Assembly (NCBI GenBank): GCA_038063995.1
Contig: JBBTUA010000003.1
Location: 1 to 63,041, forward strand
Source of the DNA: Patescibacteria group bacterium
GTDB taxonomy: Bacteria > Patescibacteriota > Minisyncoccia > 2-02-FULL-40-12
DNA length: 63,041 nt
Direction of reading: 5' to 3'
The translations under genes were made by a program, and so were the position numbers. The notes below the pieces were generated by a model, which worked only from the letters and a program-made list of their open reading frames with translations, had not been told where the DNA came from and searched no databases. Positions 9,939-63,041 of the stretch are shown piece after piece (position 1 is the first letter of the stretch; the number at the start of each line of letters is the position of its first letter).

Positions 9939-10012
9939 GGTAAGTAAATAAAGGCTTTTACTTGCCTTAGAATGGTCAAGAAAGAACAAGAAAGACAGAA
10001 TAGATAGAAATT

Positions 10013-10321: not shown

Positions 10322-10429
10322 TTTTAGTTAAATAGACCTTTCTACTGCAATCTGTAAATTTACGAAAAGCTATCTAACTAAAATCATAGAAAATTAAGGG
10401 GCTGGGTTAGCCCTTTTAATTTAACGGAA

Positions 10430-11065: not shown

Positions 11066-11472
11066 GCACCAGGGAGTTTGGACTATTTGCCGAAGGTATT
11101 GCCAGGCATTATCTTATTAAAAAAGGCTATAAAATCTTGGCCTCGAACTTTAAACTAAAATTTGGCGAGCTGGATATTGTCGCCCAAAAAGAAGATAAAA
11201 TAATCTTCTTTGAAGTAAAGGCCCTTAAAAACTCCTACGAAGACTATAATCCCGAAATGAGGGTTGATTACAAAAAGAAAAATAAATTAATTAAGCTTGG
11301 TCAAGCTTTTATGCTGTATAAAAAGCTGGATGATGTGCCCTGGCAGATAGATGTTATTTCGGTCACCTTGGATCCAGAAAATAGACCCGAAAAGTCCCGT
11401 GAGGGACCTCGGGTCACCTTTACGGGAAAAGCGAAAATAAAACATTTTAAAAATGCGTTCAGTGATAACTGA
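11062..11472 (+). CDS. YraN-family (UPF0102) endonuclease-like protein
   Basis: GE..A..YL...GY.IL..N.....GELDIVA......FFEVK motif. Confidence 0.75.
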   Translation: MSTREFGLFAEGIARHYLIKKGYKILASNFKLKFGELDIVAQKEDKIIFFEVKALKNSYEDYNPEMRVDYKKKNKLIKLGQAFMLYKKLDDVPWQIDVISVTLDPENRPEKSREGPRVTFTGKAKIKHFKNAFSDN

Positions 11473-11965: not shown

Positions 11966-11966
11966 A

Positions 11967-14336
11967 ATGAAGAAATTGATACTTGTCGATGCAAACGCAG
12001 TGATCCACCGAGCTTTCCATGCCTTGCCGCCTCTTAAAAGCCAAAAAGGCATAGTGACCAACGCGGTTTTCGGATTTTCCTCCATCCTCTTAAAAATGCT
12101 GAAAGATCTGGAGCCAGACTACGTTGTCGCGGCCTATGATCTTCCTGGACCGACTTTCCGCCACGAAGCTTACAAAGAATACAAAATCCACCGGGCAAAG
12201 ACACCGGATGAACTTTCAAACCAAATGCCTTTAACCAAAGATGTGCTTAAATCATTTGGCATTCCGGTTTTGGGAAAAAAGGGGTACGAAGCCGACGACA
12301 TCATTGGCTCCCTCGTGGAAAAATTCAAAAAAGAAAAAGATTTAAAAATAATCGTGGTGACCGGAGATTTGGATACTTTGCAGCTGGTAAAAGACAAAAA
12401 AGTTGTAGTCTATACGATGAAAAGAGGGCTTTCAGACACGGTAATTTACGATGAAGATACGGTAATGGAAAGATTCAACTTAAAACCTGAACAGCTAACC
12501 GATTATAAAGGACTGAAAGGGGATCCTTCAGACAATATTCCGGGAGTTAAAGGCATCGGCGACAAAACCGCTTCTGAACTGATCAAAGAATACGGCTCCA
12601 TTGAAAATCTTTATAAAGAAGCCAAGTCTCCCAAAACTAAAATCAAGGAATCGATAAAAAAGAAGCTTCTTGAGTCAGAAGAAGAGGCAATTTTTTCAAA
12701 ACACCTGGCAATGATGGTCAAAGATCTGGAAGTAGACGTAGATCTAAATCAAGCTGACTGGAAAAGCAATTTTAAACGGGCGGATTTGGAAAATTTGTTC
12801 AAAGAATTCAGCTTTTCGAGTTTAATTGCCAGAATTCCTGATTTAAAAAAACAGACTTTGTTCCCTGCGCCCCAAAAACTGGAACTGCCAAAATCAAGTG
12901 AATTCCCCGCTGATTTAAAAGATGGGGCCAAAAAAATACAAATTGCGGCTTGGCTCCTCAATTCAGAACTAAAGGAACCGATTTTGGATGAGGTTTATTT
13001 CGCCGAATTCGGCCAGTCAGTTCCTGATGGCCAATACAAAGAAAAAGATATTTCCAAACTATATGAAAGCTTGCAAAGAAAACTTAAAGACGCGGGCCTG
13101 AATAAAGTCTTTGAAGAAATTGAGTTGCCTTTAATTCCGGTCCTGGACGAAATGGAAAAAAACGGCATCAAAATTGATGAAAAGGCCATAAAAGAACTTG
13201 ACCGATTCGCCAAAAAAGAAATCGAAAAACTGGAGGATAAGATTTTCAAGCTTGCCGGAATTAAATTTAATATCAACTCAACCCAGCAGTTAAGCGAAGT
13301 CCTCTTTAACCGTTTAAATATCAGCGGCAAAATAAGAAAGACTCCCAAAGGAAAACTTTCAACCAAAGCCGCAGAGCTTGAAAAATTAAGAGAGGCTCAT
13401 CCGATAATTCCCCTGCTCCTTGAATACCGGGAATTGCAAAAACTCAAAACGACCTATATTGATCCGTTCCCCAAACTTACCGGGAAAGACGGCCGAATTC
13501 ATACTACTTTTATCCAAACAGGCACAGTCACCGGCCGTTTGGCTTCCCAAAATCCAAATCTTCAGAACATTCCCATAAAAACCGAGCTCGGCCAGAAGTT
13601 CAGAAAGATCTTTATCGCCGAAAAGGGCTACAAACTAGTTTCGCTCGACTATTCCCAGATTGATTTGAGAATCGCCGCTCATATCGCCGGCGACCAAAAA
13701 ATGACAGCCGCTTTCAAAAAAGGAGAAGACATCCACTTAAGAACCGCGGCCGAAGTATTTGAAATTCCACCGGAAAATATAACTCCGGCAATGAGAAGAA
13801 AAGCCAAAGCCTTGAATTTCGGAATAATCTACGGGATGGGGTCCCAAGGATTCGCCCGCTCCGCCGGAATAAAACAGGCTGAAGCAAAAAAATTCATAGA
13901 GAGATATTTTGAAGAATTCCCGAAAATAGCCGAATATATGGAGGAAATGAAGAATGAAGCCCACGAAAAAGGAATGGTCAAAAATCTTCTGGGAAGAAGA
14001 AGGCAGTTAAACGAGATCTATTCTTCAATTCCGGAAATGGTCAGACAGGCAGAACGGATGGCCATCAATTTCCCGGTTCAAAGCATGACCAGCGATATAA
14101 CAAAAATGGCGATGATAAAAATTTATGATTACATACAAAAAAATTATAAAAAAGAAGATATTAAAATACTGCTTCAGGTGCATGACGAAATTGTTCTGGA
14201 AGCTAAAGAGGACGTCGCCGAAAAGGCGGCCGAAGAATTAAGAAAAATTATGGAGAGTGTGTACGAGTTAGATGCATCGCTAGTCGCCGAAGCAAAGGCC
14301 GGAGACAACTGGCATGATCTAAAACTAATAAATTGA
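11967..14336 (+). CDS. polA: DNA polymerase I
   Basis: 789 aa; 5' nuclease domain (LVDANAV.HRAF, GDPSDNIPGV.GIG.KTA) and family A polymerase motifs (DYSQIDLR, NFGIIYGM, QVHDE). Confidence 0.95.
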   Translation: MKKLILVDANAVIHRAFHALPPLKSQKGIVTNAVFGFSSILLKMLKDLEPDYVVAAYDLPGPTFRHEAYKEYKIHRAKTPDELSNQMPLTKDVLKSFGIPVLGKKGYEADDIIGSLVEKFKKEKDLKIIVVTGDLDTLQLVKDKKVVVYTMKRGLSDTVIYDEDTVMERFNLKPEQLTDYKGLKGDPSDNIPGVKGIGDKTASELIKEYGSIENLYKEAKSPKTKIKESIKKKLLESEEEAIFSKHLAMMVKDLEVDVDLNQADWKSNFKRADLENLFKEFSFSSLIARIPDLKKQTLFPAPQKLELPKSSEFPADLKDGAKKIQIAAWLLNSELKEPILDEVYFAEFGQSVPDGQYKEKDISKLYESLQRKLKDAGLNKVFEEIELPLIPVLDEMEKNGIKIDEKAIKELDRFAKKEIEKLEDKIFKLAGIKFNINSTQQLSEVLFNRLNISGKIRKTPKGKLSTKAAELEKLREAHPIIPLLLEYRELQKLKTTYIDPFPKLTGKDGRIHTTFIQTGTVTGRLASQNPNLQNIPIKTELGQKFRKIFIAEKGYKLVSLDYSQIDLRIAAHIAGDQKMTAAFKKGEDIHLRTAAEVFEIPPENITPAMRRKAKALNFGIIYGMGSQGFARSAGIKQAEAKKFIERYFEEFPKIAEYMEEMKNEAHEKGMVKNLLGRRRQLNEIYSSIPEMVRQAERMAINFPVQSMTSDITKMAMIKIYDYIQKNYKKEDIKILLQVHDEIVLEAKEDVAEKAAEELRKIMESVYELDASLVAEAKAGDNWHDLKLIN

Positions 14337-14337
14337 T

Positions 14338-15237
14338 GTGCCCGAACTTCCAGAAGTAGAAACAATCGCAAAATATTTGAGGCCAAAAATAGTTGGTTTA
14401 AAGATAACCGATGTTTGGGCTGACCGTGAAAAACCGTTAAGACAGGCCGGCGGGCTTAAAAAGTTTTTAAAAGAAGTTAAAAACAAAAAAATCAAAGAGG
14501 TAAGGAGAAGAGCCAAATTCATTATTATTGATCTTGAAGGGCCTAAATCAATTTTTATTCATCAAAAAATATCAGGGCATCTGCTTTACGGAAAATGGAA
14601 GAAAAACAGAAACACTTGGAATTCTTTATCAAAAGGGCCGCTTCGCGATGACCCGCAGAATAAATACTTGCGGATAATTTTTTCATTGAATAACGGGAAT
14701 CAGCTTGCCTTATCGGATTTGAGAAGATTCGGAAAAGTACTACTTGTGGGAAATAAAGAAATAGAAAATTTGAATGAAATCAAAAAACTCGGGCCAGAAC
14801 CATTTGAAATAAATTTTGAAGAATTTAAAAATTTATTCAACCCTTCGATAAAACTCAAGGTAAGGAAAAAGGGACGGCTAAAACCTGTTTTGATGGATCC
14901 TTATTTTATCGCCGGGATCGGCAATATTTATTCAGACGAAATTTTGTGGGACGCCGGCTATCATCCCCTTTCCAGAGTTGAGAAACTAAAAGAAAAAGAT
15001 TTAAAAAAGGTATTTGACTCGACTATTAAGATTCTTAAAAAGGCAATCGAAAGTCAGGGTTCAAGCATAGATGACTACCGACTCCCGTCCGGCGAAAAAG
15101 GACATTATCAGGAAATTCAAAATGCTTACCAGCAGACCGGGAAAAAGTGCAAAAAAAGTGACGGCGGAGTAATCCAGCGTCTTAAAATCACCGGCCGCTC
15201 CGCACATTTCTGCCCGGTGCATCAAAAGAGACTATAG
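14338..15237 (+). CDS. mutM: formamidopyrimidine-DNA glycosylase
   Basis: N-terminal (M)PELPEVE, H2TH region, C-terminal zinc finger C..x..C...C; GTG start. Confidence 0.9.
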   Translation: MPELPEVETIAKYLRPKIVGLKITDVWADREKPLRQAGGLKKFLKEVKNKKIKEVRRRAKFIIIDLEGPKSIFIHQKISGHLLYGKWKKNRNTWNSLSKGPLRDDPQNKYLRIIFSLNNGNQLALSDLRRFGKVLLVGNKEIENLNEIKKLGPEPFEINFEEFKNLFNPSIKLKVRKKGRLKPVLMDPYFIAGIGNIYSDEILWDAGYHPLSRVEKLKEKDLKKVFDSTIKILKKAIESQGSSIDDYRLPSGEKGHYQEIQNAYQQTGKKCKKSDGGVIQRLKITGRSAHFCPVHQKRL

Positions 15238-15444
15238 CAAAAGTATAACCAATTTCTTCTCTCAAGCTCATAGAACAAATAATCTTCAGATATATTGAAT
15301 TGCCGACAATATAATGGGGAACCCCTACCCCATTATATTGTTATTGAAGAAAAAGAAAGTAAGGTAGCAATCCGTCAATTCTTCATATCTTTCAGTTATT
15401 TGTATTCTATTCCCTTGTAGTTCAGAAATTGGTTATACTTTTGC
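15237..15444. repeat. ~208 nt nested imperfect palindrome (copy B)
   Basis: gcaaaagtataaccaatttc (15237-15256) is the perfect reverse complement of 15425-15444. The interior matches copy A except for the outer stem and one apical sub-hairpin. Confidence 0.8.
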
Positions 15445-16065
15445 CAGTCTTTTTTGAGATTCCGTCTCGGCAGACCTCACCGGCGAAGCCCAAAGAAAAA
15501 AGCGGTTTGATGTTATCGTACCGCTTTGGAAGCTACATAAAGACCTCTGGCCTCTTCGGATTTTAGAACTTCTTTTGCATAGAACTGCAAGATATAATCC
15601 TTAGCTCACCTCCATATTAAGAACTCAACAAAACCAATATTTAACTAAGTTTCTAAAAGGCCTGAAAAAATGGCTTGATGCGCCTGTGCCTGAAATATTA
15701 GTTAGAATCTACTAGAGATACAAAATACTGGCTTTATTGAGCCCTAAATGCCTCAAAGAGAGAAATTTAACTATACCTACATTATAGCACTAAGATATAT
15801 AATTTGTCAAATGCAAACTTTTGGTCTCTGTTTTAGTATAGAAAGCAGATTAAAAAAGAAAAATAGAAAGCGGCAAGGCGTATCAATTTCTGAGTCGGGT
15901 AGTCGTCTTAGAAAATGGCCGGTATCTTTGCGAAGAATTGCCGAGCTTTAATAAATCTATAGTGGAGGTATCCTGATTTATCGGCAATTCGAGCAAAGTG
16001 GTGAGCCATTTTCAAGAAGGGCTCCCAAACGAAGAAATTGATATGCCTTGCGCAAGCTTTCTAAA
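15237..16065. repeat. IR block B: inverted-orientation copy of 6934-7378, with a ~400 bp extra insert
   Basis: 15251-15342 is a 92 nt perfect reverse-complement match to 7277-7368. 15855-16065 matches the reverse complement of ~6934-7140 with scattered mismatches. It lacks the terminal inverted repeats of block A. Confidence 0.8.
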
Positions 16066-16071
16066 TTCCTA

Positions 16072-17013
16072 ATGATCATCTTTCTCCACGGCCAAGACTC
16101 ATACAGTTTAATTCAATACGTAAACAATCTTATCGCCAGATACGAAAAAAAATATCCGGGCAGTTTTAATTTCCATCGCTTCGACTTGGAAGAAGACGAT
16201 CCTGCCGAAATCAAAAATGTAATCAAGAGTACATCGTTTTTCAAACAGGTAAAATTCGCAGTCGTCAAAAATCCATTTGCCAAAAGTGAAGTTATGGAAA
16301 AATTGATAAAGGAAAATAGCCTGGAAAAAGACAAAGATTCGGTTTTGCTTCTTTATCAAACAGGCGAAGAAGAAAAGTTTAAAAATTTGAAGTTATTTGA
16401 TTTATTGAATAAAACGGCTCAAATAAAAGAATTCAAACCGCCGGAACGGCCAAAAGCCGCGAAATTCGCCTCTGATTATCTTTCAAAAAACCAGATATCA
16501 ATAGAAAGAACAGCCTTGAATAAGTTAGTCAAAGAAGGCGGCTCTGATTTTTGGAGGCTTAAAAATGAACTTGATAAACTTATTAATTTTTCAAAACAGA
16601 ACAAAGCCATAAATCTAAAAGAAGAAGATCTTTCAAAGTTAGTCAGTTTTAAACTTGACCAGAATATTTTTAACATCCTTGACTCTCTTTTTTCAAACCA
16701 AAGCAAAGCTTTGCTTCTTCTAGAGGATTATTTTTCTTCCGGCGGCGACCCTCTTTACCTTATTTCAATGATTGCTTTCCAGCTAAAAAATATGCTAATA
16801 GTTCGAGAGTTGATAGACAAAAAAATGCAGTACGCCCAAATCCTTAAAAAGACCGGCATGCATCCGTTTTTCTTCAAAAAAATTTACGAGGCATCTAAAA
16901 AATACAGCCTTAGCGACTTAAAAAATATTTTCCGAAAAGCAGTTGATTTTGAAATGGCTTTAAAAACAGGCCAGGCTGAAGCTGAAACCGCTTTTTTCAA
17001 AATTTTTCTTTAA
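16072..17013 (+). CDS. holA: DNA polymerase III delta subunit
   Basis: N-terminal IIFLHGQDSY start and overall delta-subunit layout. The ORF track starts at a TTG (16048) inside the repeat; the ATG at 16072 is more plausible. Confidence 0.7.
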   Translation: MIIFLHGQDSYSLIQYVNNLIARYEKKYPGSFNFHRFDLEEDDPAEIKNVIKSTSFFKQVKFAVVKNPFAKSEVMEKLIKENSLEKDKDSVLLLYQTGEEEKFKNLKLFDLLNKTAQIKEFKPPERPKAAKFASDYLSKNQISIERTALNKLVKEGGSDFWRLKNELDKLINFSKQNKAINLKEEDLSKLVSFKLDQNIFNILDSLFSNQSKALLLLEDYFSSGGDPLYLISMIAFQLKNMLIVRELIDKKMQYAQILKKTGMHPFFFKKIYEASKKYSLSDLKNIFRKAVDFEMALKTGQAEAETAFFKIFL

Positions 17014-17066
17014 CAGCGATTCCGCTACGATTCGCTCCGCGAATCGGCGGAACCTTCGACGAGCAA
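17012..17066 (+). repeat. GC-rich palindromic repeat, copy 4 (forward)
   Basis: aacagcgattccgctacgattcgctccgcgaatcggcggaaccttcgacgagcaa; it begins inside the holA TAA stop. Confidence 0.85.
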
Positions 17067-17076
17067 TGGAAATGGT

Positions 17077-18606
17077 ATGGAAGATTACTTAAAAATAGGA
17101 AAAGCAAACGAGCTAGCAAACAGAAAAGACCGAATAATTTATCGGTCTTTTGAAATTCTGCCAGGATTTCTGGCTTATTTTAGCATCGCGGCTCTTATCC
17201 TTCTTTCTTTTAAAAGGCCATTTTGGGCCGCGGTCTTTATAATCGCCTTTGATATTTATTGGATTATCCGAATTGCTTATTTTTACTCTCACCTTGCCGC
17301 CGCTTTCAAAGTAATGAAAAAAGTGAAAAAAACGGACTGGCAGGAAAAACTTAAATCAGAAAACCTGGATTGGCAAAAAATTTATCATCTGGTCATCCTT
17401 CCATTCTATAAAGAAGGGGAAGAAGTGGTTATTCCTTCTATCGAATCTTTGGCTGAATCCAATTATCTGGTGAAAGAAAAAATGATCGTGGTCTTGGCCA
17501 GCGAAGACAGAGCCGGCGAAGAAGCTGAAATAATTTCAGAAAAAATAAAAGAGAAATACGGCGGTAAATTTTATCAATTTTTAATTACCAAACATCCCAA
17601 AGATTTGTCCGGCGAATTAGCCGGAAAAGGCTCGAATACTGCCTGGGCCGGAAAAAAAGCCAAAGAATTGATAAATCAGCTTGGTATTCCACATCAAAAT
17701 ATAATTGCTTCATCTTTCGACATCGACACCGTTGTCCCTCCTGATTATTTCAGCCGCTTAACTTACGTATATCTAACTACCGAAGACCCGCTTCACGCCT
17801 CCTATCAGCCGGTGCCTCTTTATTTTAATAACATCTGGGAAGCGCCTTTTCTTTCAAGGATTGCCGCATTTTCAACAACCTTCTGGTCTCTTCTCAACCA
17901 GGAGCGATCCAAAAGACTTAAAACTTTTTCGAGCCACTCGATGCCCTTCAAAGCCTTGGTTGATGTTGATTTTTGGATGACGGATATAGTTACGGAAGAC
18001 AATATTATATTTTTTCAATGCTTTCTTAAATATGACGGCAATTACCGCGTAATCCCTTTGTATTACCCGGTTTATATGGATGCGAATATCGGGGAAAACT
18101 TTTTCCAGACAACAGCCAATGTTTATCGTCAGCACCGCCGGTGGGCCTGGGGCGTTGAAACAATCCCTTATATGCTTTTCGGTTTTCTAAAAAACAAAAA
18201 AATACCGCTTAGAAAAAAAATTGCTCAAGGCTTTGATTACATTGAAAGCTTCTGGTCCTGGGCCACCAGTTCTTTCATTATCGCGATATTTGGATGGCTG
18301 CCGGGAGTGGTTGGGGGCATAGAATTTAAAACCAGCATCTTGGCTCTTAATCTGCCGGATATTACAGGAGGAATCGGGAGTATCGCTATTATTGCCTTGA
18401 TCTTTTCAGCTTTTTTCTCAATCAACCTCTTGTTGATAAAATTCGAAGGATATAAGAAAAGCAGATTTGCCTGGCTGGCCCTTCAATGGCTCTTTACTCC
18501 TTTAATTATGCTCACTTTAATCGCAACTCCGGCTATCGACGCTCAAACCAGATTGATTTTTGGAAAATATATGGGATTTTGGAACACTCCCAAACCAAAG
18601 AAATAA
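17077..18606 (+). CDS. polytopic membrane glycosyltransferase, family 2-like
   Basis: 509 aa; N- and C-terminal TM bundles around a cytoplasmic GT-A-like domain, with a QHRRWAWG motif resembling Q(R/Q)xRW of processive GT2 enzymes. Confidence 0.55.
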   Translation: MEDYLKIGKANELANRKDRIIYRSFEILPGFLAYFSIAALILLSFKRPFWAAVFIIAFDIYWIIRIAYFYSHLAAAFKVMKKVKKTDWQEKLKSENLDWQKIYHLVILPFYKEGEEVVIPSIESLAESNYLVKEKMIVVLASEDRAGEEAEIISEKIKEKYGGKFYQFLITKHPKDLSGELAGKGSNTAWAGKKAKELINQLGIPHQNIIASSFDIDTVVPPDYFSRLTYVYLTTEDPLHASYQPVPLYFNNIWEAPFLSRIAAFSTTFWSLLNQERSKRLKTFSSHSMPFKALVDVDFWMTDIVTEDNIIFFQCFLKYDGNYRVIPLYYPVYMDANIGENFFQTTANVYRQHRRWAWGVETIPYMLFGFLKNKKIPLRKKIAQGFDYIESFWSWATSSFIIAIFGWLPGVVGGIEFKTSILALNLPDITGGIGSIAIIALIFSAFFSINLLLIKFEGYKKSRFAWLALQWLFTPLIMLTLIATPAIDAQTRLIFGKYMGFWNTPKPKK

Positions 18607-20691
18607 CTACTCCAGATGTATTTTTTTGTTAAACTCCTCAAGTTTTTTTAGAATTAAAGGGTATCTTGCGATCTCTTTTAAAATAAGCTTTGACTCTGAT
18701 CTCGCCTGTTTTATTAAATTCACATCAGCCAAAGAAGCCATTGCCAGATCTGGGATTCCTGACTGCTTCGTGCCTGTAAATTCACCCGGACCCCTGATTT
18801 TTAAATCCATTTCCGCCAGCTTGAAGCCGTCGTTGGTTTTTAAAAGCGCCCGTAGCCGGCGAGTCTCCCCGACTAAAGGCGACTCCGTAAAAAGCAGGCA
18901 ATAGCTTTTGTGCTCTCCGCGGCCAACTCTCCCTCGAAACTGATGAAGCTGGGCCAAGCCGAATCTTTCCGCTCCCTCGATCATCATAATCGTGGCGTTG
19001 GGAACATCTACCCCGACTTCGATAACAGATGTCGAAACAAGAATATCAAAATCTCTGTTTTTAAATTTAGACATTATTTCTTCTTTCTCCTTAGACTTCA
19101 TTTTCCCATGCAGCATCGCTACTCTTAAATCCTTAAAAACTTCTTTTGAGAGTTTTTCATATTCTGCCTTTACGGCCTTGACTTCGTATTTTAAGTAATC
19201 TTTAAGAGACAGCTGTTTGTTCTTCGGCTGAAGCTTACTAACAGAGTTTTCGGTGATTTCTATCCTCGGACAAATCACAAAAACCTGCCTTCCTTCTTTG
19301 ATCTGTTCCCGGATAAAATCCTGGGCTTTTTTGCGGTCATCAGGCGGGATCAATTTCGTTTCAATTGGGGTCCGGCCTTTAGGCAGTTCATTTAAAATAG
19401 AGATATCCAAATCCCCGTATATAGTTAAAGCCAAGGTCCGGGGAATCGGTGTGGCTGTCATACTCAAAAGATGAGGCAGAAAAGAACTGTTTTGTTTTTT
19501 CAAAAGAGAGGCTCTCTGCTCGACTCCGAAACGGTGCTGTTCATCAACCACAACCAGCGCCAAATTTTTAAAATCAATGTTTTCCTGAATCAAACTGTGA
19601 GTGCCGATAACAATATCGGCTGAAATCCCTTCTCCTTTTTGGCCTGAAGAAGTTAAAAGCCCTATTTTCAAGTCAAAATCTTTTAAGGCCTTGGAAAAAC
19701 TTTGAAAATGCTGGTTAGCCAGCACTTCTGTCGGCGCCATAATGGCTGACTGATAGCCTGCTTTGGCCGTTTCTAAAGCCGCGGCCATGGCCACAGCGGT
19801 TTTGCCGGATCCGACATCTCCATTCAAAAGCCGGTTCATTGGCCAAGGCTTTTCCAAATCTTTCAATATCTCCCACAAAGCGATTTTCTGGGCTCCGGTA
19901 AGCTCAAAAGGCAAAGAAGAAACAAAATTCTTGATTGCCGCCTGGTTAAATTTTATAGACACCGATTTTTGCCTCTGCATTTTTCTTCTTTCGCTCAAAG
20001 CTTTTAACTGAAGCATAAAAAGCTCGTCAAAGGCGAAACGTCTTCTTGCTTCTTCAGCTTTTTCTAAAGACGAGGGGAAGTGTATTTCTTTCAAAGCAGT
20101 TCTGACATCAAGAATCTTCTGTCTTTCAATAATCTCCTTTGGCAGAAATTCAGGAACTTTATCGGAAAATTTTATTAAAAGAGGCTTGATTAAAAAACGG
20201 AGATAACGGGAGGTAAGACCTTCTGTTTCAGGATAGACCGGGATCAAACCAGCAGTATGTTTTAAATTATCATCTCGAATCTCTGATTTTACCATTTCAT
20301 AAGCCGGATTTTGAAGATACATCCCATATTTATCCGATTTTACTTTTCCTGAAAGACTGAATAATTTTCCCGGCTTTATTGTATTAACCAAAAAAGGCTG
20401 GTTATACCAAACAGCTTTAACCCGGCCCGTTTCATCTTCAATAGAAGCAGTGGTCAAAACCATTCTTCTTGGAAAAATCCTCTTGTTTTCTATCTTTGCC
20501 ACTTTTCCGATTATGGAGATTTTTTCGTTCGGTTTAATATCTTCCACTTTTCCGCTTTCAGTCCAATCATCATATCGAGCCGGAAAATGCCACAGCAAGT
20601 CTTTAATTGTCTTGATGCCCAGCTTTTTTAACTTAGGCAAATAATTCTTGCCTGCATACCTTAAATTTTCAATGGGAGTTTCGAGATTCAT
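18607..20691 (-). CDS. recG: ATP-dependent DNA helicase RecG
   Basis: 694 aa; wedge/OB N-terminus, helicase motifs GDVGSGKT, VVDEQHRFGV, MTATPIPRTL, QLHQFRGRVGRG. Confidence 0.95.
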   Translation of the reverse strand: MNLETPIENLRYAGKNYLPKLKKLGIKTIKDLLWHFPARYDDWTESGKVEDIKPNEKISIIGKVAKIENKRIFPRRMVLTTASIEDETGRVKAVWYNQPFLVNTIKPGKLFSLSGKVKSDKYGMYLQNPAYEMVKSEIRDDNLKHTAGLIPVYPETEGLTSRYLRFLIKPLLIKFSDKVPEFLPKEIIERQKILDVRTALKEIHFPSSLEKAEEARRRFAFDELFMLQLKALSERRKMQRQKSVSIKFNQAAIKNFVSSLPFELTGAQKIALWEILKDLEKPWPMNRLLNGDVGSGKTAVAMAAALETAKAGYQSAIMAPTEVLANQHFQSFSKALKDFDLKIGLLTSSGQKGEGISADIVIGTHSLIQENIDFKNLALVVVDEQHRFGVEQRASLLKKQNSSFLPHLLSMTATPIPRTLALTIYGDLDISILNELPKGRTPIETKLIPPDDRKKAQDFIREQIKEGRQVFVICPRIEITENSVSKLQPKNKQLSLKDYLKYEVKAVKAEYEKLSKEVFKDLRVAMLHGKMKSKEKEEIMSKFKNRDFDILVSTSVIEVGVDVPNATIMMIEGAERFGLAQLHQFRGRVGRGEHKSYCLLFTESPLVGETRRLRALLKTNDGFKLAEMDLKIRGPGEFTGTKQSGIPDLAMASLADVNLIKQARSESKLILKEIARYPLILKKLEEFNKKIHLE

Positions 20692-20762
20692 ATTTATCTT
20701 TGATTTAGCATAAATTTCAGAAAATCAAAACGGCTCAATACGTTGAGCCGTTTTGATATTTA

Positions 20763-20834
20763 CGCCCTCGAGAAGAATCGAACTTCTATTTTGGGATCCG
20801 CAATCCCATGTCCTATCCGTTGAACGACGAGGGC
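20763..20834 (-). tRNA. tRNA-Arg (anticodon GCG)
   Basis: Reverse complement folds: acceptor gccctcg/cgagggc, D-stem gttc/ggac, anticodon arm tggga-ttgcgga-tccca, T-arm agaag-ttcgatt-cttct. Confidence 0.8.
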
Positions 20835-21298
20835 TACAATCCTAGTTTTTTCCTCAATATATCTTCTAATCCTTCTTCGTGTCTTTCTTCGGGCAGATAT
20901 TTTGCCAAAATATCCCTAACTTCCAAAGGATCTAATCCTGGAAGAGGAATTTTAATATAGTAATTGACTAAATTGCCGGTGCATAGACTTAACTCGTGAA
21001 AACCTTCCGGATGATGCTCTATCCAAAAAGAACTCAAATCGCGGTAGTGGTAAAAATTATCTCCGGCTAAAATTCCATGCGGATGAATTTCATACTCCTG
21101 ATGAACCGCTTCCCGCCAAAAGTGCATTGATGTTACCACGGCTAAAGCAAAAAAAGTAATGGCCGTAAGAATACTGGCTTGCCAAAAAAGAGCTAAAAAA
21201 GCCATTGCCACCAATAATATTATTATCCCTTTTCTCCAGGAATGGCTGATAAGTTCATGGTGCTTATCAGGGCCAGTCCAGCTTAAAATACTAGACAT
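20834..21298 (-). CDS. hypothetical membrane protein (154 aa)
   Basis: ORF with two adjacent hydrophobic helices followed by a soluble domain; no family recognised. Confidence 0.55.
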   Translation of the reverse strand: MSSILSWTGPDKHHELISHSWRKGIIILLVAMAFLALFWQASILTAITFFALAVVTSMHFWREAVHQEYEIHPHGILAGDNFYHYRDLSSFWIEHHPEGFHELSLCTGNLVNYYIKIPLPGLDPLEVRDILAKYLPEERHEEGLEDILRKKLGL

Positions 21299-21362
21299 TT
21301 TGATTTACTATGGACTATCAGACTATTATACCTTATTTTTATTGAATAAAGAAACAAATTTT

Positions 21363-21433
21363 GGGCTCGTAGTATAGTGGTAATACACCGCATTCGCATT
21401 GCGGAGACGGCAGTCCGATTCTGCCCGAGTCCA
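21363..21433 (+). tRNA. tRNA-Ala (anticodon CGC)
   Basis: Acceptor gggctcg/cgagtcc with the G3:U70 Ala identity pair; anticodon arm ccgca-ttcgcat-tgcgg; T-arm ggcag-tccgatt-ctgcc. Confidence 0.85.
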
Positions 21434-21498
21434 CTGCTTCGCTAAAGCTACGCAGTGCGCAGCATAAATCCAAGGGATTTTTTTAATTCCGAAGTAAC

Positions 21499-23484
21499 GT
21501 GGAGGAGATTTTCAAAGAACTGAATCAAGGCCAGATTGAAGCGGTCCGGACCACAAAAGGGCCGGTTTTAATTATCGCCGGACCGGGCGCGGGAAAAACA
21601 AAAACCCTAACCCATAGAATCGCTTTTATGATTGGCTCGGGAATCAAACCGGAAAATATTCTAGCTGTTACCTTCACTAATAAAGCCAGCCAAGAAATGA
21701 AAGAACGAGTTAAAAAACTGCTGGGGACTCATCCTTCGACAAGCTCAGGCCGACTAACGGCGATGCCGTTAGTCGGCACATTCCATTCAATCTGCGCAAA
21801 GATCTTGCGAAAAGAAGCTAAAGCTTTGGGCTTTACTAAAAATTTCACTATTTACGACGAAGAAGATCAGTTGAATTTGATTAAAAAAGTTATAGAAGAA
21901 TTGGGGTTCGGGCAGAAAAATTTTAATCCCTACTCGATTCTAAACCGGATTTCAAAATTAAAATCTACTCTTATCGGCCCGGAAGAGTACGAAAAAGAGG
22001 CTGGAAATTATTACGAAAAAACAGTAAGCCAAATTTATTCTGCTTACAAAAAAGAACTTAAAAAAACCAATGCAATGGATTTTGACGATCTTATTTTAAT
22101 GACAGCCAATTTATTTCAAAACCATCCCCAAATTCTAGAAAAATACCAAGAACAATTTAAATATATTCTAGTTGATGAATATCAGGATACCAATGTAAGC
22201 CAGTATTTTTTGGTAAAGATGCTGGCTGGAAAATACGGGAATCTCTTTGCCATTGGAGACACTGACCAATCAATTTATACCTGGCGCTACGCCGACTTCC
22301 GCAATATGCTCAATTTTGAAAAAGATTTTCCGGAAGCCAAAATTATTAGGCTTGAGCAGAATTACCGCTCGACCAAAACAATCCTAGCCGCCGCCCAATC
22401 CCTGATTAAAAATAACAACTACCGCCACGAGAAAGAACTTTGGACTGAAAACGCTGATGGAGAAAAAATCCTGATCGCCAATCCTTACGATGAAAGAGAA
22501 GAAGCCAAATTCATCATTGAAGAAATGAAAGAACTGGTGAAAAAGGGCTATAAGCTCAAAGATTTTGTGATTCTTTACAGAACCCATGCCCAGTCGCGGC
22601 CGATCGAAGAAGAATTTTTAACCCAAGGATTTCCTTATAAAATTATCGGCGCCTTAAAATTCTACGAAAGAAAAGAAATAAAAGACATCTTGGCTTATTT
22701 GAGAATTTTGGCTAACCCAAATGACTTTGCCGCGATGCAAAGAATCTATAATGTCCCGGTCCGGGGAATCGGAAAAACGGCTTTTTTGCGGCTGACCGAA
22801 TTCAGCCGAAAAAATAACTTAGATTTTTTTGAATCCTTATTAAAATCAAAGGAAATCGAAAATCTGCCGCCGAAATCAAAATTCGCCTTATACTCTTTAG
22901 GCAAAACATCGGAAAAAATGGGTAAAAAAGCAAAAGAACTCCAGCTAACTAAACTAATAAAATTCATTACTGACGAAATTGGCTACAAAGAATACTTGGA
23001 CACTAAAACCGAAGAAGGGTATATGCGCTGGGAGAACGTAAAAGAGCTTTTAACCGTGGCTAAAAAATACGATTCTATTCCACCGGAAGAAGCGCTGGTT
23101 AAATTTCTTGAGGAAGTGGCTCTGGTCCAGGAAACCGAGAATATCGACGAAGACCAAAATGTGATCCATATGATGACTCTGCATTCAGCCAAAGGTCTGG
23201 AATTTCCGGTGGTTTTCTTGGTAGGGCTGGAAGAAGGCCTCCTGCCTCACTCGAGAAGTCTTGATAATCCGATTGAAATGGAAGAAGAAAGGCGGCTTTG
23301 CTATGTCGGGATAACCAGAGCCAAAAGAAGGTTATTTATCACTTTCGCCCGCTCAAGAAATATTTTCGGGACATCTTCCAAGGGCATCTCCTCAAGATTT
23401 TTAAACGAGATCCCTCACGAAACAATCGAAACCGCATCTAGCCTGGATCTTCCAAATGACGATGAAATCATTAATTACGCTTAA
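21499..23484 (+). CDS. pcrA: UvrD/PcrA-family ATP-dependent DNA helicase
   Basis: LNQGQIEAV, AGPGAGKT, VTFTNKAS.EM, VDEYQDTN, TLHSAKGLEF, YVGITRA motifs; GTG start. Confidence 0.93.
   Translation: MEEIFKELNQGQIEAVRTTKGPVLIIAGPGAGKTKTLTHRIAFMIGSGIKPENILAVTFTNKASQEMKERVKKLLGTHPSTSSGRLTAMPLVGTFHSICAKILRKEAKALGFTKNFTIYDEEDQLNLIKKVIEELGFGQKNFNPYSILNRISKLKSTLIGPEEYEKEAGNYYEKTVSQIYSAYKKELKKTNAMDFDDLILMTANLFQNHPQILEKYQEQFKYILVDEYQDTNVSQYFLVKMLAGKYGNLFAIGDTDQSIYTWRYADFRNMLNFEKDFPEAKIIRLEQNYRSTKTILAAAQSLIKNNNYRHEKELWTENADGEKILIANPYDEREEAKFIIEEMKELVKKGYKLKDFVILYRTHAQSRPIEEEFLTQGFPYKIIGALKFYERKEIKDILAYLRILANPNDFAAMQRIYNVPVRGIGKTAFLRLTEFSRKNNLDFFESLLKSKEIENLPPKSKFALYSLGKTSEKMGKKAKELQLTKLIKFITDEIGYKEYLDTKTEEGYMRWENVKELLTVAKKYDSIPPEEALVKFLEEVALVQETENIDEDQNVIHMMTLHSAKGLEFPVVFLVGLEEGLLPHSRSLDNPIEMEEERRLCYVGITRAKRRLFITFARSRNIFGTSSKGISSRFLNEIPHETIETASSLDLPNDDEIINYA
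21734..21776 (+). repeat. GC-rich hairpin segment in frame inside pcrA
   Basis: ccttcgacaagctcagg followed by a perfect 13 bp stem gccgactaacggc-gat-gccgttagtcggc. It shares a 15 nt string with 52723-52737. Confidence 0.6.
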
Positions 23485-45361: not shown

Positions 45362-46789
45362 TTAGCTGGATCCAAGAACCCTGTGAATCTCATCAAGATC
45401 GGTTATTCCTTCCAAAACTTTTAAATATCCGTCTTGAAGCATTGTTATCATTCCTTTTTTATCAAGCAGGCCTTTAAATTCAGTAATATTCGGGGTTTGG
45501 AGAATGAATTTCTCTATTTCCGGTTCCATTTCAAAGGCTTCAAAAATTCCTATCCTGCTTTTATAGCCTGTAAAATTGCATTTCTCGCAGCCAGCCGCTT
45601 TAAAAATCATAAATTTGTGTTTTTTAGGCACTGGATTTTTATCCAAATTTTTTAAAACAGAATTTATTTTTTCGATTTCGGCATCTTCGGCCGAAACTTC
45701 TTTTTTACAATCTTCGCATAATTTTCTGACCAGTCTCTGGGCCATGGCGATATTCATCGCTGGAGCAATTATTTGGGGTTTAACGCCCATATCAATCAAT
45801 CTTGGAATGGCTCCGGCCGCATCGTTGGTGTGCAGAGTCGAAAAAACTAAATGTCCGGTAAGGCCTGCGTGCAGCGCTGTTTCGGCGGTTTCAGCATCTC
45901 TTATTTCTCCAACCAGAATAACGTCAGGGTCCTGTCTTACTATGGATCTTAGCCCGTTTGAAAAATCATATCCCTTTTCCGGTTCAACTTGAGTTTGTGA
46001 TACTCCTTGAATTTTATATTCAATGGGGTCTTCGATGGTTATTATCTTCACTCCCGGTTCGTTCGCAAAATTAATAAAAGCATAAAGGGTCGTAGTTTTG
46101 CCTGATCCTGTCGGCCCGGTCGTTAAAATCAAACCAGTAGTTTTTTTCAGTCCTTTCTTAATTTTCTCAAGCAGGCCGCTCCTTATGCCTAATTCTTCCA
46201 AGCTTTTTTTGATAGTCTTGGGATCCAGGAGCCTCATTGCAATGCTTTCGCCGTAAGCTCCCGGAAGTGACGAGACCCTTACTTCAATATCGCCGCCGCT
46301 TCTTTTAACGGTGAATCTTCCGTCTTGGGGCGCCTCTCTTATGTTTATTTTCAGGCCGGCGATGAGTTTGATCCTATTTAAAAGAGCTGGATAGTCGTTT
46401 TTAGGAAAGTCCAGAATATCCTGCAGGACTCCGTCTATCCTGAATCTTAACCTAATACGTTTGTCTTCAGGTTCAAAGTGGATATCCGAAGCTTCAATCG
46501 AAATTGCTCCGCCAAGCAGGAATTCAAGGCTTTCCGTTGTCTGTGTCTGGGCTATTTTAGTCTTGAGATCCTGTATATTTTTTACTTCTTTTTCAAATTG
46601 ATTCAGCTTTTCCTGGCCAAGATTTAACTCACCAAGCCTGGTTTCTTTGAATTGAACTTTGGGAGGACTTGCCTTTTCGGTTAATTGGGTCGTTTCCCCG
46701 CTTTCCCGTCTTCTTATTTCCTGGAGCTTCAATTCTAATTTTCTTTCTTTTTTAGGATCCGGGAATTTCGGAGTTGGAGTGCTAGACAT
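45362..46789 (-). CDS. GspE/PilB-family type II/IV secretion (pilus assembly) ATPase
   Basis: Walker A TGPTGSGKTTTL, Asp box, Walker B ILVGEIRD, His box and a C-terminal tetracysteine C..C...C..C. Confidence 0.9.
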   Translation of the reverse strand: MSSTPTPKFPDPKKERKLELKLQEIRRRESGETTQLTEKASPPKVQFKETRLGELNLGQEKLNQFEKEVKNIQDLKTKIAQTQTTESLEFLLGGAISIEASDIHFEPEDKRIRLRFRIDGVLQDILDFPKNDYPALLNRIKLIAGLKINIREAPQDGRFTVKRSGGDIEVRVSSLPGAYGESIAMRLLDPKTIKKSLEELGIRSGLLEKIKKGLKKTTGLILTTGPTGSGKTTTLYAFINFANEPGVKIITIEDPIEYKIQGVSQTQVEPEKGYDFSNGLRSIVRQDPDVILVGEIRDAETAETALHAGLTGHLVFSTLHTNDAAGAIPRLIDMGVKPQIIAPAMNIAMAQRLVRKLCEDCKKEVSAEDAEIEKINSVLKNLDKNPVPKKHKFMIFKAAGCEKCNFTGYKSRIGIFEAFEMEPEIEKFILQTPNITEFKGLLDKKGMITMLQDGYLKVLEGITDLDEIHRVLGSS

Positions 46790-58846: not shown

Positions 58847-59086
58847 TCATATTTTATATGTTTTTTCTGTTCTTCTTTCAATAGCTAATATAAAAATAAT
58901 TTTATTTTTTGTTCTAAAAATTATTCGCAGATTTCCTTTGCGGACTCTGTAAATGTCTTGATGGCCCTTTAGCTTTTTAATATTCAAGCCGCGCCATTTA
59001 AAAGAAATAATCTTTTCAACCAAGAGTTCTAAAAGTTTTCTTTCCTTTTTGTTGAACTTGGAGAGAAGCTTGTTTAAATCAGGCAT
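58847..59086 (-). CDS. RelE/ParE-family type II toxin
   Basis: 79 aa; C-terminal pattern YRVRKGNLRIIF......I.ILAIERR...Y. It overlaps the upstream antitoxin ORF by 8 nt. Confidence 0.7.
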   Translation of the reverse strand: MPDLNKLLSKFNKKERKLLELLVEKIISFKWRGLNIKKLKGHQDIYRVRKGNLRIIFRTKNKIIFILAIERRTEKTYKI

Positions 59087-59321
59087 TCAATTTGCGGAGT
59101 TCTTTCAATATTTTCCGGGCGGATATGCCATTTTTATTTATATTCGTAAAATCAATCACGGTTTCCCATTTTTCTTCTGATTCGGGCGGGATGATTTTAA
59201 AAACCGGTTTCGATTTTTTAACAACAATAAAAGATTCCCCCTTTTTTATGCGGTTAAGATATTTTTCCAGATTTTCACGCAGTTCTTTGACGCCGATCAG
59301 ATGTTCCATAATTTGATTCAA
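59079..59321 (-). CDS. Phd/YefM-type antitoxin
   Basis: 80 aa; N-terminal IGVKELRENLEKYLNRIKKGESFIVVKKSKPVFKIIP, typical of prevent-host-death antitoxins. Confidence 0.7.
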   Translation of the reverse strand: MNQIMEHLIGVKELRENLEKYLNRIKKGESFIVVKKSKPVFKIIPPESEEKWETVIDFTNINKNGISARKILKELRKLNA

Positions 59322-59428: not shown

Positions 59429-59499
59429 AGAAAGGAATACAGATATATCAAAATTTAGAGCAAGATAATTCTAGCCGTTTTTTGAGATTTTTTCAACCT

Positions 59500-62400
59500 T
59501 TATTCCGTTGGAGTTGGTTCTGGAATAGGTGTGGCTGTAGGTTCCGGCGTGGGTTCCGGGGTTGGACTCGGGGTGGGTTCTGGAGTAGGAGTTGGTTCCG
59601 GGGTTGCCGAAGGCGAAGCCGTAGATTCTGGGTTTATCGAAGGAGTGATTTCAGACGTTGGTTCTGGAATAGGTTCTGGCGTGGGCGATTCGCTTGGCAC
59701 TGGCGCCGTCAACGGCTCAACGGGTTGAGCCGTTGGACTTGGCGTTGGAACCGGCGTCTGGATTATTTGGCTGCTGTTTTCCAATAATGCTTTCAACTGT
59801 TCCTTACTCACGCAAACTTCTTCAAGGCATAATTCTTTGGCCGTTATTTTATCCGTAAAAATCTCCGCTACTTTCAGCAGCCCATTCTCAAACACTATAT
59901 TCATCGCTTCATAGAATTTCTTGACGATGGATTTGAAAAGGATGTCAAGATCAAAAATTGCTCCTGAATCAAGGCCGAGAGAATCATTTTGGGCCGACAA
60001 CGAAGCTATTTTTAAATCAAGTTCCTGGATTGCTTTGACCGTTAAAGCGGTGAGATGGGCGTAGTCTATACTCTCAACTTGTCCGTTCTGCCAGATGATT
60101 GCTTCGGGAATAATTTCGTTTAATTCTTCGGCGATGAAGCCGATTCTTCTCTTGGTTCGGTCATCGATCAGGGAAAGACTGGAGGAGGCAGTGGAGTCTT
60201 TGATGTAGTTGAAGAAGACCGGATTGAGCTTGGTTATTTCTTCAAGGCCATATCCCAGGCTCTCAATATTCTCTTTATACCGGCGGGAAGAAATCCCACA
60301 GGCGCCGTTCACCAGCTCCAATTCTCCGGTGGAAGCGATGGCGCAGACGGTTCTATCATCAGTTACAGAACTTAACTTGGTTAAGAAAACCCTTCCTGAT
60401 ATTGAGGCTACTCCTGCAAATGAGGCTGAACCGTCGATTTCAAGGTCTCCAGAGATCAACAGATCATTGGAAGAGGAAATATAGTTTGAATGGCCGGTGG
60501 TTGATGAGCCGAAACGAGAATATGAGGCAGTTGCCGTATTTCCTACCTGCAGACCTTCCCTGAAGATGACATCGCTTACTACATCAAGCTTGGCTCCGGG
60601 TGCCGTCGTCCCGATGCCTATATTCCCTGCCTCTGTTATTCTCATTCTTTCTGATGGCGTCGCGGCAACATCAGTAGATGTTGTTCTGAAGATCAGTCTG
60701 CCCGGATTTATATCTGTTGAAATAGTATTCGTGGCCTGGGCTTCGATATCGGCAACTACAAAGTTGGTGGTAGATTGGGTGTCTATCGCATAGAATTGAA
60801 GTTTGCCTACTGAATCGTTAGCAGTCACTGTAATATCTGATCTTTTTGCGGTAATGACACCCCCGGTTCCGGCAGCTACATCCAGCAAAGAAGCCGGTGC
60901 CGTGGTCCCGATGCCGACGTTGCCGGCGGATTCTATTCTTATCCGTTCCGCGAATGTGCCGCTGCCATCCGGTACAGTGGAGAACGTCAAATACCCGGGG
61001 ACATCGCTTGTATCCCCGGCTGTTCCATGTTCAGCCGCAGCGTATCCTATAATGGCGGCAGCAGAGCCGAATCCATCGTCGTATCCCATAAAACCTAACT
61101 GACCGAGTACATCATCAGTCTGTGGAGGAGTTGGGGCGGATAAGGTACCTCTGGCATTGGCCATTTCTACAATAGCCCTTATACTAGTTCCGTAGCTTGT
61201 GGAACGGATTCTTGCTGATGTTCCATTAGGAGCGGTGACTTCAAGGTGAGTCGCCGGTGCTGTCGTCCCAATTCCCACATTCCCGGTTTTCCCTCCTGTT
61301 CCGACAAAAAGCGCATTGGAAATGGATGCCGGTCCGGCGAAAGCAATCGAACCGACCCCGTATAAATCACCGGAAATAAGAAGATCACTGCTTCCGGTTA
61401 TCCAATTACCGGCTGGGTTGGTAGTAAGAGTTGATGTCCCAAACCTTGAATATGCCACCGAAGCAAAACCTCCGACTTGCAAAGTATTCCCAGTGAGAAG
61501 GTAAGAGGAAGAGGCTGTTCCTTGGACTTCGAATTTGGTTTGAGGGGTGGTGGTGTTAACACCGACATTGCCACCTGACAAAACATTAAACTTAGTATTT
61601 ATATCAAGTAAGCCGACTGGGCTTGTCGTCCCTATCCCAACATTCCCATCACTCAATATCGTCAATCTCTCACTGCCCAAGGTAGAGAACCCCAGAGCAT
61701 TAACTGCACGTCTGAACATCCCCGTGTCTTGGTCAATGGCAAAAGCAAAGGAAGGAGAAGCGGCGGTGCCGGGTTGAGCGTAGAAAAGAGAAGCAGAAGC
61801 AGTTCCTCCAAAGTTGGCTGTGCCGTCAAAGTAACTATTGCCGTCAACTTCAAGATCTCCAGAGATTAAGAGATCATTTGTGGTGGTGATGTTTCCTGAA
61901 TGAGTAGTCGTATTTGTCCCAAACCTTGAATACGCCACCGAAGCAAATCCTCCGACTTGCAAAGTATTCCCAGTGAGAAGGTATGATGCAGAAGCCGTAC
62001 CTTGGACTTCAGCTCTGCCAGCAGAGACTAAGAGAGCCAGACCAGTAGAAGAAAAGGTGGTTGAACCAGAAAAGGTATTAGCCCCGGTCCCGGTTTGAGT
62101 GTAGGCTCCGTCAGCAGCAATGGTTCCGATACCAGAAAGATTACCGGTATTGGTAATATCCCAATCCGAGGTATTAATCTCTCCAGTATCACCACTATCC
62201 CCAAAGATGAATCTGCCTGCTGTTTGGAAGTTGCCAGAGACAGAAGCCTTGCCGTCAAAGAAAGTGTTGCCGTCTACTTCAAGATCTCCAGAGATTAAAA
62301 GATCATTAGTAGTGGTTAGGTCATTTGAGTAAGATGTTGTCCCCGTCCCAAACCTTGAATATGCCGCCGAAGCAAAACTCCCCACTTGCAGAGTATTTCC

Positions 62401-63041
62401 TGTGAGAAGGTAAGAGGCCGAGGCAGTGCCTTGGACTTCGAAGACTGTTGATGGAGCAGTGGTGTTGATGCCAATCCTGTTATTGGTTGCGTCAACAGAG
62501 AAAGTTGATGTATCAAAAGAAAGACCATTGACTCCGCCGGATAGAGTAAGGTTGGTATCATTGGCCAAAGTCCAGGCATCGGCATTAAAGGTAACCGTAT
62601 CTCCAGAAGCATCACCAATGGTAGAGTTTCCGTTGACCGAGAAGGTACCAGTGGTTGACTGGTTGCCGTTGACAGTTAATCCGGTTCCAACAATGGCTTG
62701 AGCATTGAGTCCCTTGGAAACAAGGAGAGACCCGGCAAAGGAAGATGAACCAGTTCCAGAGAAAGTGTTGGTCCCATAGGTGAAGAAGTTGCCCGAGACC
62801 GAAGCAACACTGGCAAATGAAGCAGTGGCGTCTACTTCCAGATCGCCGCTTATCAAGACGTCATTAGTCGTTGAGATGTAGTTTGAATGTCCTGTAGTGC
62901 CAGTCCCAAACCTTGAATACGCCACCGAAGCAAATCCTCCGACTTGCAAAGTATTCCCAGTGAGAAGGTATGATGCAGAAGCCGTACCTTGGACTTCAGC
63001 TCTGCCTTGGACAGTAAGAAGAGATGATGGTGTTGTTGTCC
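59500..63041 (-). CDS. giant repetitive tail-fibre-like surface protein with an S74-type intramolecular chaperone domain and a Pro/Thr/Glu-rich C-terminal tail (5' end outside the window)
   Basis: The frame stays open to the window edge. Five or more repeats of (V)[29 protein letters not shown]...[12 protein letters not shown] and six repeats of GN(V/I)GIGTTAP. Near the C-terminus: SSRRYKENI...[11 protein letters not shown]......[17 protein letters not shown]. Confidence 0.85.

Follow-up and report, generated by a model that had tools for sequence, protein, structure and literature searches.

The minus strand at the end of the 63,041-nt stretch analyzed here (the window; contig JBBTUA010000003.1 of a Patescibacteria group bacterium) holds the final 1179 codons of a chromosomal gene of very large size, the 5′ end of which lies beyond the window edge. 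The product resembles phage tail fibers and contains a Peptidase_S74 (S74) intramolecular chaperone domain. Unlike in typical phage members, this domain is not C-terminal, but is followed by a small conserved module, here named EXT, and by a tail rich in Pro and Thr. We favor, with moderate confidence, the view that the protein is a membrane-anchored, exported trimeric surface fiber, in which S74 drives trimerization and then removes itself together with EXT and the tail, so that the distal tip is formed by a Cys-bridged loop (C899...C914-G-I).

The frame between positions 59500 and 63039 comprises 1179 codons and a stop codon; it is uninterrupted by stops and remains open where the window ends. 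This agrees with an earlier sequence-only reading of the stretch, which had described a long open fiber frame cut by the window edge. The gene and the features of its C-terminal region are located as follows.

59500..63041, minus strand: large fiber gene, 3′ part (1179 codons and stop), based on translation without internal stop and on ~500 homologs.
59986..60291, minus strand: S74 intramolecular chaperone/auto-cleavage domain, aa 917–1018 (Pfam core aa 917–981, then a long C-terminal helix), based on PF13884, AlphaFold2 (AF2), Foldseek and an alignment to 8JOV.
60274..60291, minus strand: predicted catalytic motif S917-S-R-R-Y-K922, with the scissile bond predicted between Ile916 and Ser917, based on alignment to MyRF.
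59764..59964, minus strand: EXT module, aa 1026–1092, with a helix, a β-hairpin, a linker, a β-hairpin containing C1071-x4-C1076 and a helix, based on alignments, profile search and AF2.
59503..59757, minus strand: low-complexity tail rich in Pro, Thr, Glu and Ser, aa 1095–1179, up to the stop codon, based on composition.

Peptidase_S74 (PF13884) is the sole Pfam domain found in the 1179-residue fragment, where it matches aa 917–981 with an E-value of 9.5e-12 and a score of 45.5 bits against a cutoff of 22. The Pfam model spans only the conserved core of the domain. In the AF2 model of aa 820–1100, the predicted local distance difference test (pLDDT) values are 88–96 over aa ~919–1019, including a 28-residue terminal helix (model residues 174–201). 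The best Foldseek match of the modeled region is the intramolecular chaperone auto-processing (ICA) domain of MyRF (7DC3, probability 1.0, TM-score 0.58–0.63 on the target), with weak matches to the endosialidase chaperone 3GW6 and to 3GUD. The Pfam match and the predicted fold thus bear out the S74 assignment of the sequence-only reading. According to the alignment to 8JOV, a phage tail fiber terminating in S74, the canonical domain ends at ~aa 1011–1018, and therefore 161–168 residues lie beyond it, in line with the ~150 reported before. That reading had also stated that S74 normally ends the protein. The statement holds for phage fibers but is not universal, as MyRF continues after its ICA domain, and the combination of EXT and tail is recurrent in the Patescibacteria family.

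In the alignment to MyRF, each residue of the motif S917-S-R-R-Y-K922 has its counterpart in S587-D-L-R-A-K592. In MyRF, S587 and K592 form the catalytic Ser-Lys pair, equivalent to S911 and K916 of endoNF, and the chain is cut before the serine, between P586 and S587 (PMC8326128). By analogy, the cut in the fiber protein is predicted between Ile916 and Ser917, which would free a fragment of 263 residues. The usual catalytic motif of S74 is SDxxxK (PMC10769870), and motif windows show that many relatives of the window protein have an SS[IL]R[FY]K variant. The S-x4-K motif is kept in essentially all relatives that combine S74 and EXT, which argues that cleavage is under selection even in the presence of the appendix. 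Two cysteines, C899 and C914, flank a loop right before the predicted cut (window positions 60292–60345, aa 899–916), and a Cys pair is found at the same position in relatives such as P0065, P0119, P0037, and P0175. The mature tip may therefore be a disulfide-bridged loop.

Among the first 120 homologs, 21 have a sub-terminal region that aligns with EXT (~67 residues), and the C-x4-C cysteine pair and one glycine are invariant. An exhaustive profile search against 1.84 billion cluster representatives returned 1007 at E ≤ 1e-3, 114 of them at E ≤ 1e-10; a word-indexed search with the short EXT profile gave only 8 small fragments and was uninformative. Among the 174 proteins in hand, EXT is always located 4–257 residues (median 84) from the C-terminus and is followed by a tail rich in Pro, Thr, Ser, and Glu. 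Of these proteins, 81 have more than 250 residues upstream of EXT; S74 directly precedes EXT in 21 of them, and other domains occupy this position in the rest. All named proteins with EXT are from Patescibacteria. AF2 modeling with 61 sequences predicts a helix, a β-hairpin, a linker, a Cys-bridged β-hairpin, and a helix (mean pLDDT 74.6). The module has no match in Pfam or NCBIfam, and its model has no fold match in the PDB or BFVD (all E > 1). In addition, EXT is absent from 50,697 phage records searched with tblastn and from IMG/VR searched with exact peptide patterns.

The tail (aa 1095–1179), described before as a PTPEP-type sequence of ~85 residues, contains 31 Pro, 18 Thr, 12 Glu, and 9 Ser in 85 residues. 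Up to the stop codon it has no anchor motif and, in a window scan, no hydrophobic or transmembrane-like segment. EXT and the tail recur near the C-terminus of the relatives, are conserved and lack database annotation; they thus represent a C-terminal cassette specific to the lineage, rather than an accident of the window gene. The cassette is combined with different C-terminal chaperone or tip domains and would be an appendix of the pro-domain. Our best guess is that it aids export or assembly and leaves with the chaperone, rather than joining the mature fiber.

Some relatives depart from this arrangement. In the C-terminal regions of P0010, P0017, P0023, and P0037, the C-x4-C half of EXT is swapped for a sequence of the pattern ...D..TGE.YC[VI].[VI]..G..., suggesting that EXT may be built from two exchangeable halves. 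In relatives that lack S74 (L023 at ~20900–21500, P0010, P0018, P0025, P0057, and P0100), EXT is preceded by a domain of ~170 residues that starts with D-x-A-E-[WYFE], for instance PSDIAEWYP. We presume a resemblance of this domain to the Peptidase_G2 autochaperone of phi29 gp12, which serves as an unconfirmed lead only: one of three sequences gave PF11962, with an E-value of 0.22 below the cutoff. On the opposite strand of the tail, two long open reading frames (ORFs) at window positions 59482–59787 (plus strand) and 59531–59728 (plus strand) would encode products rich in Arg, Trp, and Gly; these ORFs almost certainly arise as artefacts from the low complexity of the coding sequence.

The conservation of EXT also bears on the main alternative, which we consider unlikely and in which S74 is a trimerization module only, uncleaved or cleaved but bound, while EXT and the tail are functional in the mature protein. 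They could then form the actual binding tip or serve as a stalk, glycosylated or embedded in the wall, by which the C-terminal end is fixed in the cell wall or S-layer. Such strong conservation and such a wide distribution would be unusual for a throw-away peptide, EXT is also found behind domains other than S74, and Ser in place of Asp at the second motif position fits a domain that is not cleaved. Pro-rich regions are classic wall-spanning segments of Gram-positive surface proteins, and the NCBIfam scan of the window protein, which gave no meaningful match, returned a weak low-complexity match to the proline-rich region of PspA. However, the family-wide retention of the Ser/Lys pair and the absence of an anchor motif or hydrophobic segment at the end of the tail speak against this alternative. 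Furthermore, members of the family are already anchored by an N-terminal transmembrane helix (see below), so that a second attachment at the far end of the fiber is hard to picture, and every S74 protein studied cleaves after trimerization (PMC10769870, PMC8326128).

Upstream of S74, the fragment is built from repeats, as the sequence-only reading had recognized. A module of ~60 residues occurs five times, starting at aa ~17, 203, 346, 506, and 820, and the motif GN[VI]G[IV]xTT.P is also found five times, at aa 465, 490, 586, 706, and 805. At the DNA level, the gene contains repeats in 3–4 copies of 122–193 nt with 76–83% identity. The features of this region are the following.

62815..62991, minus strand: repeat module copy 1, aa 17–75, based on protein and DNA repeat comparison.
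62260..62433, minus strand: repeat module copy 2, aa 203–260, based on protein and DNA repeat comparison.
61825..62004, minus strand: repeat module copy 3, aa 346–405, based on protein and DNA repeat comparison.
61345..61524, minus strand: repeat module copy 4, aa 506–565, based on protein and DNA repeat comparison.
60817..61200, minus strand: fiber segment, aa 614–741, with a GN[VI]G-type motif at its end, which aligns with mosaic adhesive trimer (MAT) structures and phrog_9942.
60400..60582, minus strand: repeat module copy 5, aa 820–880, more diverged and directly before the Cys-flanked loop C899...C914, based on protein repeat comparison.

The fragment matches the PHROGs tail-fiber families phrog_9942 (E 1.7e-37, best stretch aa 624–732), phrog_18345, and phrog_8443, and tail fibers of Pelagibacter, Synechococcus, and Thermus phages match the window protein at 25–30% identity. 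These matches support the earlier proposal that the protein is built from phage-fiber parts. A phmmer search of PDB sequences with the window protein retrieved Bd2133 (8OND, E 1.9e-7), 8OML (3e-6), 8OL4 and 8ONF (1.6e-5), and 8ON4 (1.1e-3); the matches to 8OL4, 8ONF, 8ON4, and part of 8OML fall on the segment aa 614–741. By sequence, the closest solved relatives are thus the prey-recognition fibers of Bdellovibrio. In Bdellovibrio bacteriovorus, 21 chromosomally encoded, phage-tail-fiber-like trimeric fibers, the MATs, are displayed on the surface of the predator (Caulton et al. 2024, PMC10769870). Thirteen of the 21 end in S74 and eight in other adhesive tips, and self-cleavage has been demonstrated for one of them, Bd3182 (PMC10769870).

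Searches found ~500 homologs, many of which are marked as partial. Nearly all named ones come from metagenome-assembled genomes (MAGs) of Patescibacteria, or candidate phyla radiation (such as Yanofskybacteria, Paceibacterota, and Parcubacteria). Related MAGs each have fiber proteins of the window family, some members of which are labeled "tail fiber domain-containing protein" by the Prokaryotic Genome Annotation Pipeline (PGAP). Two loci in MAGs labeled as uncultured Gammaproteobacteria (L016 and L017) contain short stretches 64–65% identical to a fiber module of P0002, the protein encoded on the probable upstream contig described below; mis-binning, transfer or a shared module could account for them. 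PF26696 (PTL_trimer) appears as a weak hit in the precomputed annotation of P0001, P0019, P0020, P0047, P0056, P0059, and P0113; for P0001 it is not reported by a Pfam scan at E ≤ 0.01. A literature search found no paper linking Patescibacteria with S74 or tail-fiber-like proteins, which is not proof that such proteins are undescribed.

The same data are relevant to a second alternative, namely that the protein is a structural fiber of the envelope, similar to an S-layer, a spacer or a glycocalyx element, and has no specific role in host recognition. In favor of this view, the protein is of very great length, with a repetitive sequence of low complexity, each of the related MAGs has fiber proteins of this family, and Pfam and PDB sequence searches identify no receptor-binding domain of known fold at the tip. 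Against this, the closest characterized relatives, the phage fibers and the Bdellovibrio MATs, are all recognition or adhesion fibers. Moreover, the C-terminal domains are swapped between close loci, with S74 in the window gene and another domain in L023, which is the pattern of diversifying recognition tips. On balance, a purely structural role appears improbable.

The 5′ end, noted as missing in the sequence-only reading, was sought in metagenome assemblies; a probable upstream contig was found, although it cannot be joined to the window in a unique way. Searched as an exact pattern, the final 43 nt of the window occur once in the metagenome collection, in a contig of 10,561 nt from the same groundwater well, H51 (L024). 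From a TTG start at nt 5821, this contig encodes a protein of 1580 residues (P0002, nt 5821–10561) that runs off the contig end, and its last 32 residues are identical to the first 32 of the window fragment. In the DNA, exactly 55 nt are identical between L024 and the window, and the last 44 nt of L024 differ from the window at synonymous positions, approximately to the degree seen between repeat copies. Logan unitigs from three runs are shattered across the junction and show a 3–6× depth in the repeat modules, indicating that repeats caused the contig break. It is very probable that L024 carries the 5′ part of the window gene, or of a paralog in the same population, and at least one repeat unit may separate the two contigs. 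Joined directly, they would encode a protein of 2,727 residues, and the full gene probably encodes at least 2,700.

The N-terminus of P0002 comprises a domain of ~60 residues (...INELAEEHGYAIDHISRLCRQGRIQAIRKENGRWFATRKSLIEY...), a stretch rich in Lys and Arg and a hydrophobic helix (LRFALLGIFIFAMISSAIAFG), followed by the same fiber modules as in the window. The N-terminal domain is common to ~37 of the 265 collected proteins. When 29 of these N-termini were aligned, 24 matched the Pfam family HTH_17, with a best E-value of 2.3e-8. A transmembrane-like hydrophobic segment follows the domain in all four members scanned (P0001, P0002, P0003, and P0038). In P0038, a complete member of 988 residues, the order is helix-turn-helix (HTH) domain, transmembrane helix, fiber, S74, EXT, and Pro/Thr-rich tail. 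An HTH_17-like domain of the excisionase/MerR type and a single transmembrane helix also start P0003, P0038, and the L023 gene (~9700–10000). This places a DNA-binding-type domain on what would be a giant surface fiber.

The window sequence recurs in assemblies of the Hainich groundwater well H51 (0.1 µm fraction), and the same stretch in another of these assemblies (L001) breaks inside the same fiber gene. The window contains 12 tRNA genes, with tRNA-Thr located 70 nt downstream of the fiber gene and tRNA-Phe, Gly, Arg, and His nearby, and housekeeping genes for PBP1, a PilB-like ATPase, NusA, trigger factor, iPGM, and RNase Y. Further genes of the window and L001 encode DoxX, TatD, a class V aminotransferase similar to cysteine desulfurases, and a PhdYeFM antitoxin. 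No further fiber, S74 or EXT sequence is found within the window. The scan of ten ORFs between 39 and 59 kb and the L001 genes called with Pfam hits revealed no phage genes. The neighborhood of tRNAs and a toxin–antitoxin pair, and the lack of phage genes, are therefore as the sequence-only reading had described them.

At window positions 58847–59321, between tRNA genes, the ORF of the PhdYeFM-type antitoxin (80 residues, or 76 as called in L001) overlaps an ORF of 79 residues by 8 nt. The latter has no Pfam hit on record and, by eye, is similar to toxins of the RelE/ParE type. A T2SSE/PilB-type ATPase (E 2.5e-115) is encoded at 45362–46789, 13 kb from the fiber gene.

Upstream of P0002, L024 encodes an oxidoreductase, an Fe/Mn superoxide dismutase, a transketolase N-subunit, and an α/β hydrolase; a prophage structural module, which would point to a phage gene, is absent from this probable upstream contig. 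No phage genes occur in these 5.8 kb, nor in the flanks of three homologs (up to 10 kb per side). The flanks of these homologous loci (L021, L022, and L023) contain tRNA synthetases, glycolytic enzymes, and glycosyltransferases, and the fiber loci of L021 and L022 are flanked by housekeeping and envelope-biogenesis genes. L023, from the MAG H51-bin030_1 (GCA_038062015.1), has a neighborhood similar to that of the window; the two share DoxX (79% identity) and the aminotransferase (63% identity). Its fiber gene (10001–21917) starts with HTH and transmembrane segments, encodes more than 3,900 residues across a run of N and ends with a non-S74 domain, EXT, and a Pro/Thr-rich tail. Within this gene there are also a large tandem duplication and an intein (Pfam Intein_splicing, P0001 aa 1334–1561), the latter inserted right after a GNVG.GTT.P motif.

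Since all four loci have chromosomal contexts, they support the cellular, rather than phage, origin of the window gene that had been proposed before. The annotated relatives in phage databases are tail fibers only, and S74 is best known from phages, but it is most improbable that the gene belongs to a prophage, to a phage-derived particle such as a tailocin or an extracellular contractile injection system, or to a phage contig mis-joined to the chromosome, given that no structural, packaging, lysis or integrase gene of a phage was found in any of the regions scanned, that EXT is missing from the phage records, BFVD and the IMG/VR pattern scan, and that an N-terminal membrane anchor with a cytoplasmic HTH domain makes no sense for a virion protein.

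For the membrane-anchored fiber that we favor, the following mechanism can be proposed. As suggested by the family members and the probable 5′ contig, the cytoplasmic HTH_17-like domain and the single transmembrane helix would anchor the protein with the N-terminus inside and the C-terminus outside. The long repetitive part, by homology with phage and MAT fibers, would be exported and form an elongated trimeric fiber. S74 would then nucleate trimerization via its C-terminal helix and, if active, cut between Ile916 and Ser917 using Ser917 and Lys922. The 263-residue fragment of S74, EXT, and tail would leave, exposing the disulfide-bridged loop (...C-x14-C-G-I) as the distal tip. Our best guess for EXT and the tail in this process is a role as spacer or tether: they may give the chaperone enough reach to get past the membrane and wall and meet two partner chains. 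Finally, the fiber may contact host or partner cells, as suggested by the episymbiotic lifestyle of cultivated Patescibacteria and the MAT precedent. Host attachment is proposed by analogy only, on the basis of phage fibers, MAT fibers, the episymbiotic lifestyle, and the exchange of C-terminal domains from one related locus to another.

Several observations weigh against this mechanism. It does not account for the strong conservation of a module with two invariant cysteines, nor for the long Pro/Thr-rich tail, on a fragment that would be discarded. The second position of the catalytic motif is Ser instead of the usual Asp (SSxxxK), and the activity of this variant is a prediction from sequence. 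The HTH_17 score of P0002 itself, 18.6–23.8 bits, is below the Pfam cutoff of 27. As no unique join links L024 to the window, additional repeats could lie between them, or L024 could derive from a paralog. In the AF2 monomer model, the fiber part has pLDDT values below 50, and no RNA run contains the fiber gene. The S74 domain, its motif and predicted fold, the cellular context and the retention of the Ser/Lys pair across the family are observed; trimer formation, cleavage, topology, surface location, and export are properties that we infer.

The organization of the family is reminiscent of the Bdellovibrio MATs in three respects. Both are chromosomal, phage-tail-fiber-like fibers, and Bdellovibrio is also a bacterium that lives on other bacteria; the fiber segments are related in sequence and share a GN[VI]G-type motif; and the C-terminus carries either S74, as in the window gene, or an exchangeable tip, as in L023 and many relatives. 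The MATs are ~1000 residues long and have a signal peptide and a conserved, β-rich N-terminal domain of ~130 residues (PMC10769870). In contrast, an HTH_17-like domain and a transmembrane helix stand in place of the signal peptide in P0002, the probable 5′ part on L024, and in the relatives P0001, P0003, and P0038; the N-terminus lies outside the window. Members of the family can also exceed 2,700–3,900 residues, and EXT and the Pro/Thr-rich tail follow S74 or another domain, whereas S74 is terminal in MATs.

With phage fibers and tailspikes (endosialidase K1F, 3GW6; T5 pb1, 4UW8; PF13884), the window protein shares the Ser-Lys pair at the start of S74, the long C-terminal helix after the S74 core and the β-rich fiber upstream. 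It differs from them in that the gene is not in a phage, S74 is not terminal, the motif is SSxxxK instead of SDxxxK and the identity is only 25–30%. The ICA domain of MyRF is the best structural match and is likewise followed by more protein; MyRF is also a membrane protein with a DNA-binding domain. However, in MyRF the DNA-binding and ICA domains are located on the same side of the membrane, and cleavage frees a transcription factor. In the fiber family, a transmembrane helix separates the HTH domain from S74, and cleavage by S74 therefore cannot release the HTH domain.

A more far-reaching idea, which we regard as quite doubtful, is that the protein connects the cell exterior, across the membrane, with the chromosome. 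The cytoplasmic HTH_17-like domain of a giant host-contact fiber would bind DNA or a regulator, and engagement, tension or loss of the fiber would be signaled directly into gene expression or DNA handling of an ultrasmall episymbiont, while EXT and the tail would be a new export or assembly pro-domain specific to Patescibacteria fibers. Support for coupling the HTH domain to DNA comes from the domain order alone.

Cultivated Patescibacteria live attached to other microbes. So far, host binding in this group has been tied mainly to type IV pili (PMC12206443). Cellular S74 fibers are already established by the MAT work; relative to the MATs, the family appears to differ at both ends of the protein, with the HTH and transmembrane segments at the N-terminus and EXT and the Pro/Thr-rich tail at the C-terminus. 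EXT, found in ~1000 protein clusters and without annotation, and the N-terminal arrangement are well defined and open to testing. The family extends the idea drawn from MATs, that bacteria living on bacteria re-use the receptor-binding hardware of phages, to a second, unrelated lifestyle. As a large, diversifying family of chromosomal phage-fiber-like proteins with exchangeable C-terminal domains, it provides concrete candidates for host recognition in a very large and mostly uncultured group.

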